A DNA stretch of 64,000 nucleotides from Octopus sinensis (lineage: Eukaryota), in the NCBI RefSeq assembly GCF_006345805.1, contig NC_043009.1, positions 10,540,001 through 10,604,000 on the forward strand. The letters are read 5' to 3'. Shown here one piece after another: positions 9,487-63,551 of the stretch (positions are counted from its first letter, which is position 1; every line of letters begins with the position of its first letter). Below the pieces are notes generated by a model. It saw nothing but the letters and a program-made list of their open reading frames with translations. It made no database searches and was not told the origin of the DNA. The position numbers and the translations under genes are program-made.

Positions 9487-10261
9487 AATCATCATCAGAG
9501 AATAGTGCAAAGAGACATTTAGTGCTGCGCTTCAATTCAATTCATTTTGCCAGCCTCCAATACTGGAGCGTACATTAATCAAGGAATAAGATGTAAAATA
9601 TCTTATGACATCTATTTTGACTGCACTATAGTTGAAATATCACCGATATTTCATTCTTTCATTCTTTCAAAAATGGAAGTGTAATACTAGTGGAAGCCTG
9701 TGAATTGACGGATTTTGTTAGCACGTCGGGTGACGGAGCGAGGCGATTGGCTGCACCTGAGTCGATGCTAATGATTTAGCGCTGTTGACTGGACATTCAG
9801 CTCTTTTGGCAAAAGTACGTTTTGGCACTGGAGGCACTGGAGGCATTGGAGGCATGCATATTCACACGCACGCTGAAATATGTACATGTAGAAAGAGAGA
9901 GTGAGAGATAGGGAAAGAGGGGAAGAGGAAGAGACATTACACGTAGACACAAACATAGCTAGATGCTCACATACACATAAACAAAAAGGAAGAGCGGGCG
10001 TGGGAGAGAAAGAGGTAGAGAGGAGGAGAGGGAAAGAACGTGAGAAACACTAAAACCCTGATGTCAAATAAGTCAGCGTCGAATCAGCGATGCCAAATAA
10101 GCGGTGCCTAAACCGCTATACCAAGATATCTACTTTTTGACGAGTTGCCTTGTAGTATCTGTTCCTACTGTTTGCATCCAGCGTTCAAATCCTACCTTCT
10201 ATCATCGGTTTCCTCGTGGCAGAGACCGTGTTGTTGCTTCTGTCATTCTAATTATTACTGT

Positions 10262-10626
10262 TTCTGTTGCTGTTGCTGTTGCTGTTGAGCGAAGCGGTCT
10301 TCGTCTCAGAGCTCGCAAGATGGGAGAAGTCCGAAACGTGGTCCTTTGCTATTCGTAAGACCCGCAGAAGAGAAAGCAGGTCAACTCCCGACACCGAGAG
10401 CAACGACGGATGGATGAATGCGCATCCAGGCTCAGCGGTTGCGTAGGAAGTCGGGGACAAGAAACAGGAAGAAAGAGTGAGAGAAAGTTGGGCCGGAAGA
10501 GTACAACAGGGGTCCCCCCCCTGCCGGAGTCTCGTGGAGCTTTAGGTGTTTTCGCTCAATAAACACACACAACGCCCGGTCTGGGAATCGAAACCGCGAG
10601 TCCGCTGCCCTAACCACTAGGCCATT
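10262..10626 (-). mobile_element. tRNA-derived SINE family D
   Basis: Minus-strand head TGGCCTAGTGGTTAGGGCAGCGGACTCGCGGTTTCGATTCCC and (CAACAG)n tail; other copies at 36370-36552 and 59965-60162. Confidence 0.8.
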
Positions 10627-11193
10627 GTTGCTGTCTTGGGACAATCCTTCTGTAGCACAAATGAAACTAGTGATTTGCCTGTCTTGTATTACAACTCTGA
10701 TCTTTCCCTCCTTGTCATTGGATTGAAGAAACCTTATTTGGAAGCTGTTTAGGTTTCTAGATGAACTAAAAGAAGCAAGGGATTCTAATATTTCGTAAGG
10801 CCCAATAGTCATGGATTAAACCTTTGAGTCGATTATCTCCCATTTCGATTCTAAAAATGAAAACACTTGATTTACACTTATTTTGCTTATAATTAATTAC
10901 AATGTTATAATTGTAAATATTCATGGGAAACACATGGAGTAGCAGAGTAGATTTTTCTCATCAGCCATCTTCAGGACACTACTTTTACTTTTTCATGCTG
11001 TGTTGCTTTTTAAAACTCCACATTTTCATCATGTATGCATCTGTCAGCGTGTAAGAAAGAGATTCTAGTTTTCTTCGAGCATACAGACTGGATTCGAGCC
11101 GCACACCAATATACTGCAGGTGCACAGTGTTCACTCTCTGTCATTTTCTGCTGCTACTGAACCGGCCTTTATATATCCTATATCCTATATCCT

Positions 11194-11350
11194 ATATCCT
11201 ATATCATATATCATATATTAGCGCTTTCGCCCACTCTAGTGGAGTTTTCAAATTGAACTCTCAATTTGAAAACTCAAATTGAACTGTTCAATTTGAAAAC
11301 TCCACTGGAATGGACGAAAGCGCTAATATATGATATATGATATAGGATAT
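11194..11350. repeat. Palindromic foldback/MITE-like element
   Basis: About 65-bp arms ATATCCTATATCATATATCATATATTAGCGCTTTCG...GGAGTTTTCAAATTGAAC with an inverted copy at 11286-11350. Confidence 0.8.
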
Positions 11351-11549
11351 ATGATGTATAAAAACATGTAATATACAAATAAATATCTGTAAATATAAAA
11401 CCATCCGAATTTCTGAGTACCTCATATATATGTATATATATATACCGGAGTAAACACATAAATGTGAAACAAGGTGGAAAAAAGAGTACTCAAATACCAG
11501 TGGTAGAGTAATATGCTTTATTTAAAAGCAGCAGAAAATTCAACAAAAT

Positions 11550-11587
11550 CTGTTACTCTGAGTTTCTCGTTGCCGTTCATCAGACAG
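11550..11587 (-). ncRNA. Minimal type I hammerhead ribozyme motif
   Basis: Reverse complement reads CTGT-CTGATGA-ACG(GCAA)CGA-GAAA-CTCAGAG-TA-ACAG; core intact, one stem II mismatch. Confidence 0.65.
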
Positions 11588-11766
11588 TTTTTGCTAGAAT
11601 GGAACCGATATATCAATTCAATCTAGACTCTTACAAACGCTACACCTTTAAAAAAAATGGACTTGTTTGATTGGCCCTTTAGAAAAAACGGTCAATCTTC
11701 GAGCGATAAACAAAAAGGTCAAAAATATATGTATATATATATATAAAAACTTATAAAAATTATAAA

Positions 11767-11861
<95 letters not shown>

Positions 11862-11951
11862 GGAAAAAAGCAACAAGAATGGAGAATTTTCCATGATGTT
11901 TCATAAGTGTAACATTACCCACTTTGATGTTTGGGAATCTCTGATGTTTTC

Positions 11952-12036
11952 TCGGCTGATGAGTACGAGCCACCTATATTTACTGCAATTTTTGTAGCTT
12001 TATTAAAGATGTCCTCGTACGAAACAATTGTACCGA
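11952..12036 (+). ncRNA. Type I hammerhead ribozyme motif, palindromic stem III
   Basis: TCGG-CTGATGA-GTACGAG-(44 nt)-CTCGTAC-GAAA-CAATTG-TA-CCGA; all stems pair and the core is intact. Confidence 0.8.
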
Positions 12037-12600
12037 TATATTGATCCATTCTTGTTGCTTTTTTCCTATTTGTAATCACCCCACTTTGTCGTATGGTTAA
12101 CACCATATAGATTTCCGGTGCATCCTAGTTAAGGACCATATTCATGTGAATTCATTAGAACTCACTTGAATCTCAATTACTTAAACCTATATATATATAT
12201 ATATACTATTATTTCTAAATCTCTGATCGAGAAATATACATCAACAGTAGTACTTTAGAGTAAAATTTATTTGCCAACGTAAAATGGCAGGCCTGATTAG
12301 GACGAATGTTACTACTATTTAAAAACAGGAAAACAGCTTCTCCTGTTGGCTATCGACGCATTACCTGCGTCCTTTCATTTAGAACAAGGGACCTAGTATC
12401 CCCACTCAGCTCAAAACGATGCGATATCTGTGTACCAATGAGTTCTGGGTTATTTCCCTTATATATATATATATCTTATATTTCATCATTCACAATCTTT
12501 TTATCAATATCCGAACGAGTTAAGCGACACGGATTCAGTACAATCTCCTGTAACAATATAATTATTCTGTTACGACTTTTCTGATGTATCCTTCATTATT

Positions 12601-12721
12601 GCACTGACGAAAATGGTAATATATAATTAAATTAGTATAATTAAATTAATTTTAATTATTATTAATTCAATCTCTTCCATGTTTCTTACATGTTGTGTTA
12701 CCATTTGAAACGATCGTATGC
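12601..12721 (+). ncRNA. Type I hammerhead ribozyme motif, palindromic stem III
   Basis: GCA-CTGACGA-AAATGGTAA-(AT-rich loop)-TTACCATTT-GAAA-CGATCG-TA-TGC. Confidence 0.72.
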
Positions 12722-12829
12722 TTAGATTAAAATTCTATGAAAGTTTTAACATCGCTTCTCCATCTTTAATTGTTTGTTGAGTTTATATAGGACTGTGTTC
12801 TATAAATGCTCACACCTTATACTTATACT

Positions 12830-12870
<41 letters not shown>

Positions 12871-13108
12871 ATGTATATGTTTGTGTGTCTGTGTTTGTCC
12901 CCCCAACATCGCTTGACAACCGATGGTCATGTGTTTACGTCCCCGTAACTTAGCGGTTCGGCGTAAGAGACGAATAGAATAAGTACTAAGCTTCCAAAGA
13001 ATAAGTCCTGTGGTCGATTTGCTAAAGGCGGTGCTCCAGCATGGCCGCACTCAAATGACTGAAACAAGTAAAAAAGTAAGAGTAAAAGAGAGAGAGAGTA
13101 AAGGAGAG

Positions 13109-13496
13109 TATATATAAAAGTAAGGTTGTGTGTCTGTCTACTCCGATTTAGATTCCTAACTACTCCCACATTTTGCGGTGCAGTTTAACCAAAACCGGGT
13201 ATCTTATGGTCGTGATTCATATCGAGCCCTTCTGGGTATTAGCGCGCGTCTACGATGAGTCTACGATTTTAAAAATAATTTACCATCATTTTTTTCCATT
13301 TTAATGCATATTTTTTAAATATAAGGGAAGTAACTCCCTAAAAATGTCTACGATGAGTCAACGATTTAAAAAAAAATTTACCATCATATTTTCTCCATTT
13401 TTAATGCATTTTTTGCTATTTTTTGGCTATAACTCTTTAAAAATGCTTTATAGTTATTTCCCTTACAAACCCGAGCAACGCCGGGCGATACTGCCA

Positions 13497-13497
<1 letters not shown>
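13109..13497 (+). mobile_element. Non-autonomous Helitron (family 2)
   Basis: TATATAAAAG..(GTCT) 5' region; 3' hairpin CCCGAGCAACGCCGGG followed by CTGCCAG|T (CTAG-like end). Confidence 0.6.
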
Positions 13498-13543
<46 letters not shown>

Positions 13544-13889
13544 TATATATATAAATGTCTGAGGAAAACTTTTATCTCTCCATTTTCCATGTGCCTCATG
13601 GAAATAGCTATCACAATTCTCTAAAGAAGCATGGAAATAGATTGCATGCTCGGACCACCACCACCACCATCACCACCATTACTACCATCACAACCACAAT
13701 CACTGCCATCATCACCACTATCACAGCCGCCGCCGTTACAGCACGTCGCTGCATCCACCATTTCTCGGTATTTGCTCGGGTCATCAAAAGTAACCTTCCA
13801 AGCGGTGTCTCAGTCTGTCCCCAGCGCTTCGAGATAATTTCCTCAACCACCGTGACCCTATAGCATGTGACCAAGCAACATAAACCGTC

Positions 13890-14278
13890 GGATGTTTTCG
13901 GTTTGAACGGCAGTTTTTTCTAGCGGTGTCATATGAAATTGTCACCCATAATTATGACCCTAGTATCGATCTATTGCATTTCAATCTGTTTTAGGGTTAG
14001 GGGTGGGGTTAGGGTATCTTCTTTTCTTCACAAATGTAAACGAGGGACATATTCATACGGCACAGAATGTTTTCACCTCAATAGACGTCATTGATTGGTT
14101 GAAATTGCAGAATTTGAAGAAAAAAAACAAACAAATATCTTACAAACCATAGAATTCTCTCAATAAAGCCAAGAGAAAAAGATGTTTTATAAACACATTC
14201 TACCAGTATACGAAGTTTAAATGTGTTTAGTTACGTGGAAATTATTTCTAAAAACTGCCGTTCAAACCGAAAAGATCC
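13890..14278. mobile_element. GG-terminal MITE (Merlin-like), copy 1
   Basis: TIR GGATG/CTTTTCGGTTTGAACGGCAGTTTT; 9-bp TSD TAAACCGTC/TAAACTGTC; internal TTAGGG repeats. Confidence 0.85.
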
Positions 14279-15336
14279 TAAACTGTCACCCCAACCAGAT
14301 CCTCCGAAAAGAGAAAACGATAGAGAGGATGCACCTCTGAAAACCGGCCTAGCAGCCTGAGCTGACGCTCCCGAATCATTCAAGTAAAAGGGCGCGTCTC
14401 AGCCTTTTAGTATAGTGGGTGGTTGATGGTTGGATACGAAATCCGATCAATAGAGAACCCAATCAATTGCTTTCAAGATTAGATTTAATCTGTCGCTTGC
14501 TTTTTCATAACCAGCTAACATCTAGGGTGCCTTCAGTAGAGTCCGCTCTGTTACAAGCTCTGTTACAAGCCATGGTTCATGTTTGAGAAGATATTTTCCT
14601 CTTTCATTCGTATCCGAGGAACTGTAACGAGTCGTGGAGTCTCTCTTTCCTCTCGACTAACAATACAAACAAGAAAATCTGAATGCCACATATCATGCCT
14701 GTTTGTTATCTAATCCGTGGCTGTCTTCTGTCAGGAAGAAACCTTCATTTTGTATATCGCATTTACGCATGCGGTTATGGCGATATATCTCATGAAAGTG
14801 TAAACAAGGAAATAGGAACAATAAAAAAAAAAAGAGCTGCTGGTATACAAATAAGAATCACTATGGGGTAAAGGTTAGCGAAATGAGTAAATGCTACATA
14901 ATCTCCTTCAAAATCACAACTAATCCTTAAATTCATCGCACAATATCTTTTCAATATGTAATTAAGTGTAAGTACAATAACAGCTTGAAATTTATGAGTA
15001 AAGGGAAGTAACTCTTTAGTATTTGTATTTTATTATTTCCCATGATTAATGAAAAAAAAAAAACCTTCTCTCGACCGTGTATACGAGGAATATTATTATA
15101 GGAAAATAGCTACAATTTCTGAGTGGAACATGTTGCTAAAGACATCAAAGAATTTTCCAGATACCAACAACAAAATGTATAAAACGCCTAAGCAATTTTT
15201 CAAAAGCGAAAACTTAATTTTTGCTAAATAGTTTGGTACGTGGTTCGTGAAACCATTCACGAATAATCTTAGTAATGTGATCGTGTGTGTGTGTGTTGTG
15301 TACTGTGATGTCCTGTTATTGTTATTATTATTGTTG

Positions 15337-47549: not shown

Positions 47550-47640
47550 GCGGCTGATGAGAGCTTTAAGCCATCTTTTATATCAATAATACAATGATGT
47601 AATAATGGATTGTTTATAAAGCTTGAAACACGTGTACCGT
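47550..47640 (+). ncRNA. Type I hammerhead ribozyme motif in HSD17B12 intron 8 (sense strand)
   Basis: GCGG-CTGATGA-GAGCTTTA-(loop)-TAAAGCTT-GAAA-CACGTG-TA-CCGT. Confidence 0.75.
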
Positions 47641-62808: not shown

Positions 62809-63551
62809 TATACATGATGGGTTTCCACAGAGTTTCTGTCTACCATATTTACTGACAAAGCATTGGTTGTCCCAGAGCTTTTCTAGAAAATTCTTGCCCA
62901 AAGTACTGTACTGTAGGATTGACCCTGAGACCCCATGATAGAAAAGTGAGCTCCTTAACCACACAGCCATGCTTGCATCTATGTTAGAAATCATCGTCTT
63001 TTATATCAAGCTACTTTGCTTGGCTGCTAATGGTTACAAATAAATTTCCTTTTTAAATGGCTTTAATCTTTGGCTTTCTTCTCTCTTATCATTTCCATTC
63101 TCTTCACTTGTCTGTTGTTGTTGTTGTTGCTTCCTGTTTTGGTGAATTATCTTTTTTGTTTACTTTTTTTTTTTTTTCCACTTGTTTCTTTTTGGTATTG
63201 TTTCCACCTCTTTTATAGTTTATTGCCAACACAGAAACTAGCAGAAACATGCAAGGGGATGGATAGAGAAAAGTAACAGAACAAACCACCACCACCACTA
63301 CCACCAACCGCCGCTGCCACCACCATGACCACCACAAGGAAAGTGAAACTGAAAAGCCAGTGGAAAGAATACATGATGTATTGCTTATTTGGTTTTAAGA
63401 AGCATTGAGAAGTGAAGGGTGTATAGGTGTGTGTGTGTATGTATATATATATATATATAGACCGGAGTAAACACATAAATGTGAAACAAGGTGGAAAAAA
63501 GAGTACTCAAATACCAGTGGTAGAGTAATATGCTTTGCTGCTTAAAATAAA

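Follow-up and report, generated by a model that had tools for sequence, protein, structure and literature searches.

The hammerhead-bearing segment at 11445-12827 of the window (the whole 64,000-nt stretch of DNA analysed here, which sits in G000, a genome of 2.72 Gb) is very probably made up of four insertions that entered TA repeats independently and now lie piled together, namely the 3' ends of three Penelope-like elements (PLEs), F1, F2 and F3, and a piece of an ORF-less repeat, F4. The pieces are of different ages, with identities to relatives from 77-84% to 99%, and TA runs lie between them. The features are listed below.

11445-11768, minus strand: F1, the 5'-truncated 3' end of a young Hydra-clade PLE, 96-97% identical to the full-length copies L118 and L095 and 98-99% to the best copies; it holds the end of the 3' UTR, the hammerhead, the pLTR end near 11511 and a 66-nt tail ending at 11445
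11550-11587, minus strand: HH1, type I hammerhead with a 4-bp stem I, a 2-bp stem II plus GCAA loop with A.A, and stem III ACUCAGAGU; predicted cut between 11554 and 11553
11769-11859, no strand: (TA)n target run separating F1 from F2
11860-11883, minus strand: inverted arm of F2, 24 nt, ending at the pLTR end
11883-12187, plus strand: F2, the 5'-truncated 3' end of a second Hydra-clade PLE, 93-95% identical to L190 and L014; pLTR end near 12069, tail of 118 nt to 12187
11952-12036, plus strand: HH2, type I hammerhead with a 4-bp stem I, a 7-bp stem II and stem III ACAAUUGU; predicted cut after 12032
12206-12460, minus strand: F4, a 5'-truncated piece of an ORF-less head-to-tail hammerhead repeat of ~350 nt; only the 3' half of the ribozyme is left (12428-12459), with point changes
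12476-12827, plus strand: F3, the 5'-truncated 3' end of an old Hydra-type PLE family (a less secure assignment), ending at the pLTR end without a tail and followed by (TA)n
12601-12721, plus strand: HH3, type I hammerhead with a 3-bp stem I, a long stem II and stem III ACGAUCGU; predicted cut after 12718
63438-63536, minus strand: a second, very short F1 piece with pLTR end and tail, without the ribozyme, adjoining a long TA run

A descriptor scan of the whole window found three type I hammerheads at exactly the positions read in an earlier note on this DNA, above shuffle expectation: descriptor matches averaged 0.035 across 200 dinucleotide-shuffled versions of the window, and the minimal palindromic form appeared in 0/200. 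The architecture described there (the core, a palindromic stem III, a GUA triplet and a stem I of 3-4 bp) is present in all three motifs. The fourth hammerhead-bearing repeat (12206-12460) had been overlooked; its CUGAUGA half is cut off, lost at a TA run. Rfam over 10000-14500 at E<=10 gave no match to a hammerhead model, and among the 38 weak matches of that scan none was a hammerhead and none reached the gathering score. Taken in isolation, HH1 is not predicted to adopt a hammerhead fold (z 0.03).

Three other features of the window were observed. The scan gave a further type I hammerhead match at 47551-47639 on the plus strand; its stem III is ACACGUGU, and the TA-flanked repeat that carries it belongs to a different family again, with one relative among the retrieved loci (L228). 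At 11186-11358 lies a 173-nt near-perfect palindrome with 7-nt tandem flanks, MITE-like or a fold-back, which was the source of spurious miRNA matches. The repeat at 13230-13497 has an internal 98-nt duplication and a GC hairpin at its end, followed by a TA run, and resembles what we take to be a Helitron-type 3' end.

Searched genome-wide, as the earlier note had proposed, F1, F2 and F3 each proved to be a dispersed repeat. For F1, the DNA search yielded 1743 first-look candidates, and among the 40 that were scored the best non-self identity was 99%; the 34-nt core of HH1 has 2572 exact copies in G000 and its reversed control 0. Long F1 copies run upstream into an ORF. The protein search gave 82 scored matches, and in 7 of the 30 loci retrieved the ORF is unbroken, with 708-712 aa. 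The element is ordered as hammerhead, pLTR end, 66-nt tail, ORF, 3' UTR and hammerhead, with a hammerhead-to-hammerhead period of 3.3 kb. TA dinucleotides follow 99/100 of the exact HH1 copies mapped on contig C1, indicating (TA)n insertion, and the layout of an EN+ PLE was seen: partial pLTR tandems, an inverted 5'-truncated copy and a tail at one end. The 2-bp stem II of HH1 with its A.A mismatch at 10.1/11.1 is the family state (104/115 copies). Contigs of four putative RNA runs cover most of F1 and, as contigs, are silent on starts, strand and circles. In contigs from three runs, the F1 tail is joined at L118:834 to foreign sequence that is alike in the three; these joins are possibly one genomic junction or a host transcript.

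The F1 protein contains RWK, DKT, YRDD and a CxC/F-x5-C linker. On alignment of F1 with 117 of 120 listed homologues, RWK, DKT, YRDD and the CxCX5C linker were nearly invariant, with YRDD invariant in 118/118 sequences, and 0 cysteines were found between the GIY- and YIG-like strands, i.e. no CCHH. The predicted structure (pLDDT 93.7) has telomerase RT as its best fold match (TERT 3du5, E 4e-10), and residues 581-690, read within the whole-protein model, combine a VVY..YTG..R..E..N pattern with a predicted beta-beta-helix fold. In look-alike clusters, PF01541 is found in 26-50% of members. A Pfam search of a 524-aa F1 piece returned 0 families and a PDB sequence-profile search returned 0 matches. 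On sequence grounds F1 is thus a Hydra-clade element, assigned by motifs, hammerhead and (TA)n insertion and not by a tree. Naiad, our first guess, was rejected, since the putative endonuclease region of F1 is C-terminal and hammerheads are present, while Naiad has an N-terminal endonuclease and no canonical hammerhead. As a side observation, the second Cys of the linker, invariant in the 117 homologues, is retained in 7/31 F1 linkers and changed to Phe in 22/31, and in 5/41 F2-like linkers as well, which is a parallel change (L100-L129, L160-L209).

The F2 search gave 2701 first-look candidates, with a best non-self identity of 99% among the 40 that were scored. In L190 and L196, pLTRs flank long frames on both sides, the linker reads CNCRIKSKC and the tail runs into the start codon; the window copy is 94% identical to L190, with which it shares stem III, and 92% to L196. 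The L196 protein has RWK and ADKT, carries Asn-rich inserts and shows 39% identity to F1 across 479 aa; its catalytic motif is YRHD, not YRDD. Relatives of F2 have RW[KR] and ADKT, with the linker Cys in 36/41. The family, about 4.7 kb in length, is by these motifs likewise a Hydra-clade one. Eight F2 ends lie on the same strand at 17-27 kb spacing in G000:C6:12704470-12850382, a series which is likely a tandemly duplicated block.

For F3 there were 495 first-look candidates, and the best non-self identity among the 40 scored was 82%, higher values occurring solely over partial matches. At L210 an inverted pLTR, a broken ORF with CNCRNPSTC and a pLTR follow one another, and L141, L231 and L226 tie the L210-type ORF or 3' UTR to F3. 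RWK and DKT are unreadable for F3. The ends of F3, like those of F2, adjoin (TA)n. A fixed 5' start for F3 was considered and dropped, as copies extend upstream across an internal microsatellite, up to about 900 nt. A walk through the tail found no tail-to-ORF copy in 30 loci. We regard F3 as an old Hydra-type PLE family, an assignment less secure than those of F1 and F2 because only broken ORFs and no intact one were found, the ORF-linked copies match the window copy at 71-75% identity, and F3 fragments are also adjoined by two other Hydra-type ORF pieces (L136, L156). At L212:640-5130 an F3 pLTR is joined directly to another, GC-richer Hydra-type ORF, whose downstream hammerhead has stem III ACAUAUGU.

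These results bear on the view taken in the earlier note, that the three units are ORF-less, non-autonomous, retrozyme-like families. The window itself is without an ORF, as that note said, most copies are short, and F3 offers broken ORFs only. However, copies of F1 and F2 lead without a break into an ORF for an RT and a putative endonuclease, and from there into their own pLTR again, the 5' ends are variable rather than fixed, and F3 reaches upstream through its microsatellite, so that this view is now very improbable. The families are indeed distinct and do target TA, but they are not non-autonomous, and the lack of an ORF holds for the window and not for the families. Its comparison with the minimal hammerheads of PLE pLTRs was well founded: the linked ORFs that it had proposed to look for were seen in longer copies, which join the pLTRs to an RT with a putative C-terminal endonuclease. 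The cluster could also be imagined as a functional unit, host-selected or co-mobilised, given that 1.2 kb holds three intact motifs here, where the background is about 5 in 421 kb. That count is made up of 1 motif in evenly picked stretches totalling 200 kb, 3 in the flanks of F1 (158 kb) and 1 elsewhere in the window. Against this, the pieces differ in age, are TA-separated and have different palindromes, and the combination is repeated in none of the retrieved loci; moreover, ~3 such triples per genome are expected by chance (a rough figure from small counts), and more with a shared target. We find this reading very improbable, and retain that of four separate insertions.

The Hydra clade has already been published with canonical hammerheads and (TA)n insertion (PMC8557442). 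In the part of that paper available to us, its members, e.g. Hydra-2_Amil, Hydra-1_Obim and Penelope-13_HM, have a single ORF, a C-terminal endonuclease without CCHH (putative in the families here), and the RWK, DKT and CxCX5C motifs that F1 and F2 also show. The clade and the families here further have in common a pLTR with a type I hammerhead, a (TA)n target and inverted 5'-truncated copies. The coral Hydra-2_aMil hammerhead has the same stem I as HH1 and nearly the same stem III, and stem II base mismatches, as in HH1, are common in the Hydra hammerheads listed there. The differences from the same source are of several kinds. F1 (3.3 kb) and F2 (about 4.7 kb) exceed the <3 kb given for the clade, a limit that is not defining since the paper says 'generally'; the tails are 66-135 nt here and 30-40 nt there; the 2-bp stem II of HH1 is below every Hydra hammerhead listed in its supplement, so far as that was available; and the Asn-rich inserts of F2 and the Cys to Phe change in 22/31 F1 linkers set these proteins apart. 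Hydra-1_Obim, the one cephalopod family listed in that part, has a protein and hammerhead unlike these when compared by eye. In literature searches for these families in cephalopods, PMC8557442 was the one relevant result, judged from the listings, and the three families are probably uncatalogued. No biochemistry of the Hydra clade was found in the literature searched.

In order to place the 3' ends of F1, we used the first 100 exact HH1 copies on contig C1. In this set the pLTR end, or a point just short of it, is the last position of 58/100 copies; a further 41 reach the tail end, and 1 goes on into the ORF. Every inverted pair was mixed, with one pLTR-end arm and one tail-end arm, in F1 (24/24, ~3e-8 if independent) as in F2 (14/14), and the window's own F2 copy is likewise; the F2 ends were taken from 77 arms from the first 100 listed matches, leaving out 7 C6 near-duplicates and matches held solely in L001-L030. 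Among F1 ends without a detected inverted piece, 7 were pLTR-type and 1 tail-type. Since both kinds of end occur without such a piece, and there is an in vitro parallel in the PAc element (PMC11167929), this suggests two independent reverse transcription start sites. As described in the accessible part of that paper, PAc, a Poseidon element of Anolis, has two fixed 3' ends bounding the tail, an AT-rich target and a hammerhead upstream of the reverse transcription starts, as here. It belongs to another clade and its ORF starts inside the hammerhead, whereas the ORF here starts ~60-70 nt past the tail end. That a 'tail' is found 'at one end' was known qualitatively, from the portions at hand of PMC8557442 and PMC3846280; no relevant account of twin-priming was found in the literature searched.

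The 5' ends of F1 were read from 100 copies anchored at the pLTR end, 31 of which extend >150 nt, where the alignment stops in a low-complexity tract. It was observed that 44/100 copies stop within 0-17 nt upstream of C3 of the core, with 2 at 21-60 and 4 near the cut site. As few ends lie near the cut site, cleaved RNA is unlikely to be the main template. This pile-up might arise if the RNA starts 17 nt upstream of the core, at an initiator-like CCAUUCU, and the RT runs off uncleaved RNA. We hold this explanation tentatively, with more doubt than confidence. The sharp drop beyond 17 nt and the full-length F1 copy L115, which starts at +16, speak for it, as does the placing of PLE promoters in the pLTR (PMC8557442, in part). 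The cliff is absent from the 77 arms of F2, where a cluster at +40 has shared upstream element sequence and looks like a subfamily deletion, and most full-length F1 copies extend past +17. Moreover, a hairpin is predicted whose 3' foot lies at +11 to +16 and whose end is a CTAG palindrome, the modal junction, so that RT stalling or fold-back fits as well; palindromes at inverted junctions have already been described in the part of PMC3846280 seen. In PAc, according to the available text of PMC11167929, cleavage is not needed for insertion, and the F1 5' ends are not at the cut site.

Scanning with a descriptor that does not demand a palindrome, we found stem III to be palindromic in 88/109 distinct matches within the retrieved loci, in 7 sequences, with 0 in the reversed control, and most of the 21 non-palindromic matches differ by one base. 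The test of stem covariation proposed in the earlier note gave a positive result: stem I pairs covary (TCGG/CCGA, TTAG/CTAA, GTCT/AGAC and CCAC/GTGG) and the stem III palindrome is kept through sequence change, in counts dominated by F2 and F3 relatives. Conservation of the core above its flanks, also raised there, was borne out in F3 (0.954 in core columns vs 0.883 elsewhere, p about 0.004), but not in F1 and F2, both young, where the core is conserved no more than the flanks. A G10.1-C11.1 pair is present in HH2; HH3 starts with A-U at that place, and HH1 has A.A plus 2 bp. By computed energies, stem III adds <1 kcal/mol or destabilises in cis, and gives -6.4 to -10 kcal/mol as a self-duplex. 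Cleavage of hammerheads as dimers was reportedly described by Lunse et al. in 2017. The self-duplex energy fits dimer cleavage (PMC4209133), and we infer that the hammerheads would cleave only as dimers via the palindromic stem III. Within the consulted part of PMC4209133, minimal PLE hammerheads have low in vitro activity; they are type I with a short stem I and a palindromic stem III, mostly occur as single dispersed motifs or opposite-strand pairs, and fall into many families per genome, as here. In comparison with these, HH1 and F4 are without the G10.1-C11.1 pair, and stem III is here a full 8-9-nt palindrome. The window copies, each with a different palindrome and no same-family tandem partner, are likely inactive passengers.

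F4 differs from the other three pieces. Its search gave 1958 first-look candidates, and 22 other loci were inspected, each with +/-1.5 kb. Relatives have, on the minus strand, a type I core whose stem III is ACCAUUGGU and whose stem II is short and A.A-flanked like that of HH1; cores were seen in 9 arms in 8 loci, mostly with point changes, and have 3 exact genomic matches. In 14/22 loci the unit's own end lies upstream of the unit start, which gives a ~350-nt head-to-tail unit, and the rest are cut inside the unit; the arrays are short, up to about 3 units. No Hydra ORF was found within 1.5 kb of F4 in the 22 loci. The combination by which retrozymes are recognised, i.e. no ORF and a head-to-tail unit of 150-450 nt with a type I hammerhead, is therefore present (14/22 loci). 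The 3' ends cluster at two places, many of them beside TA or CA runs, and inverted arms occur in 12/22 loci (6 mixed, 2 apparently both pLTR-type and 4 ambiguous), a less clean pattern than the all-mixed pairs of F1 and F2. From these features of its copies, F4 is likely mobilised by Hydra-clade PLE enzymes.

We are evenly divided on the fuller proposal, which makes F4 an animal retrozyme: a Hydra-clade RT would copy a hammerhead circle of 350 nt for more than one round and leave PLE-type ends, inverted arms and microsatellite targets. Non-LTR retrozymes, in the parts seen of PMC7229834 and 10.64898/2026.07.22.740005, are alike in having an ORF-less head-to-tail unit, ~350 nt in F4, with one type I hammerhead; F4 departs from them in that its ribozyme is of the minimal PLE type, its arrays are short and its copies show inverted arms and two fixed 3' ends, and F1-F3 differ from them in having ORFs and in not being short head-to-tail units. 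Mobilisation of retrozymes by PLEs was proposed in these sources from co-occurrence and trees. The PLE-type ends of F4 would also suit another autonomous PLE, of which F4 would be the end and whose copies with an ORF went unsampled, 22 other loci of about 1958 candidates having been looked at. This seems unlikely to us, given the unit's own end upstream in 14/22 loci, the cuts inside the unit in the others and a Hydra ORF within 1.5 kb in none.

Taken together, a mechanism can be outlined for the four insertions. The RT-endonuclease would nick AT-rich DNA on both strands, as the available part of PMC11167929 indicates for PAc, and reverse transcription would begin at two fixed internal positions of the RNA, both downstream of the hammerhead, giving the pLTR end and the tail end. 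Copying would usually abort early, and two head-to-head products would yield the inverted form. Cleavage by dimeric hammerheads would take place in partial-tandem transcripts. By divergence, F3 and F4 would have inserted first, and F1 and F2 later.

The cluster is ordinary for an animal genome rich in PLEs, and its families belong to a kind already known; what specialists may find useful is limited to the end-mapping counts and the F4 repeat. F1, a young Hydra-clade family of high copy number, has intact ORFs, and in its thousands of copies the points at which reverse transcription begins and ends can be counted with reference to the ribozyme. With F4 it can be tested directly whether animal retrozymes ride on Penelope enzymes. 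If the retrozyme reading of F4 is true, it would be insertion-level evidence for a retrozyme-PLE partnership so far argued from co-occurrence and trees, and the strict one-tail rule would in that case be the mark of a protein dimer that primes the two target strands at two different RNA sites.
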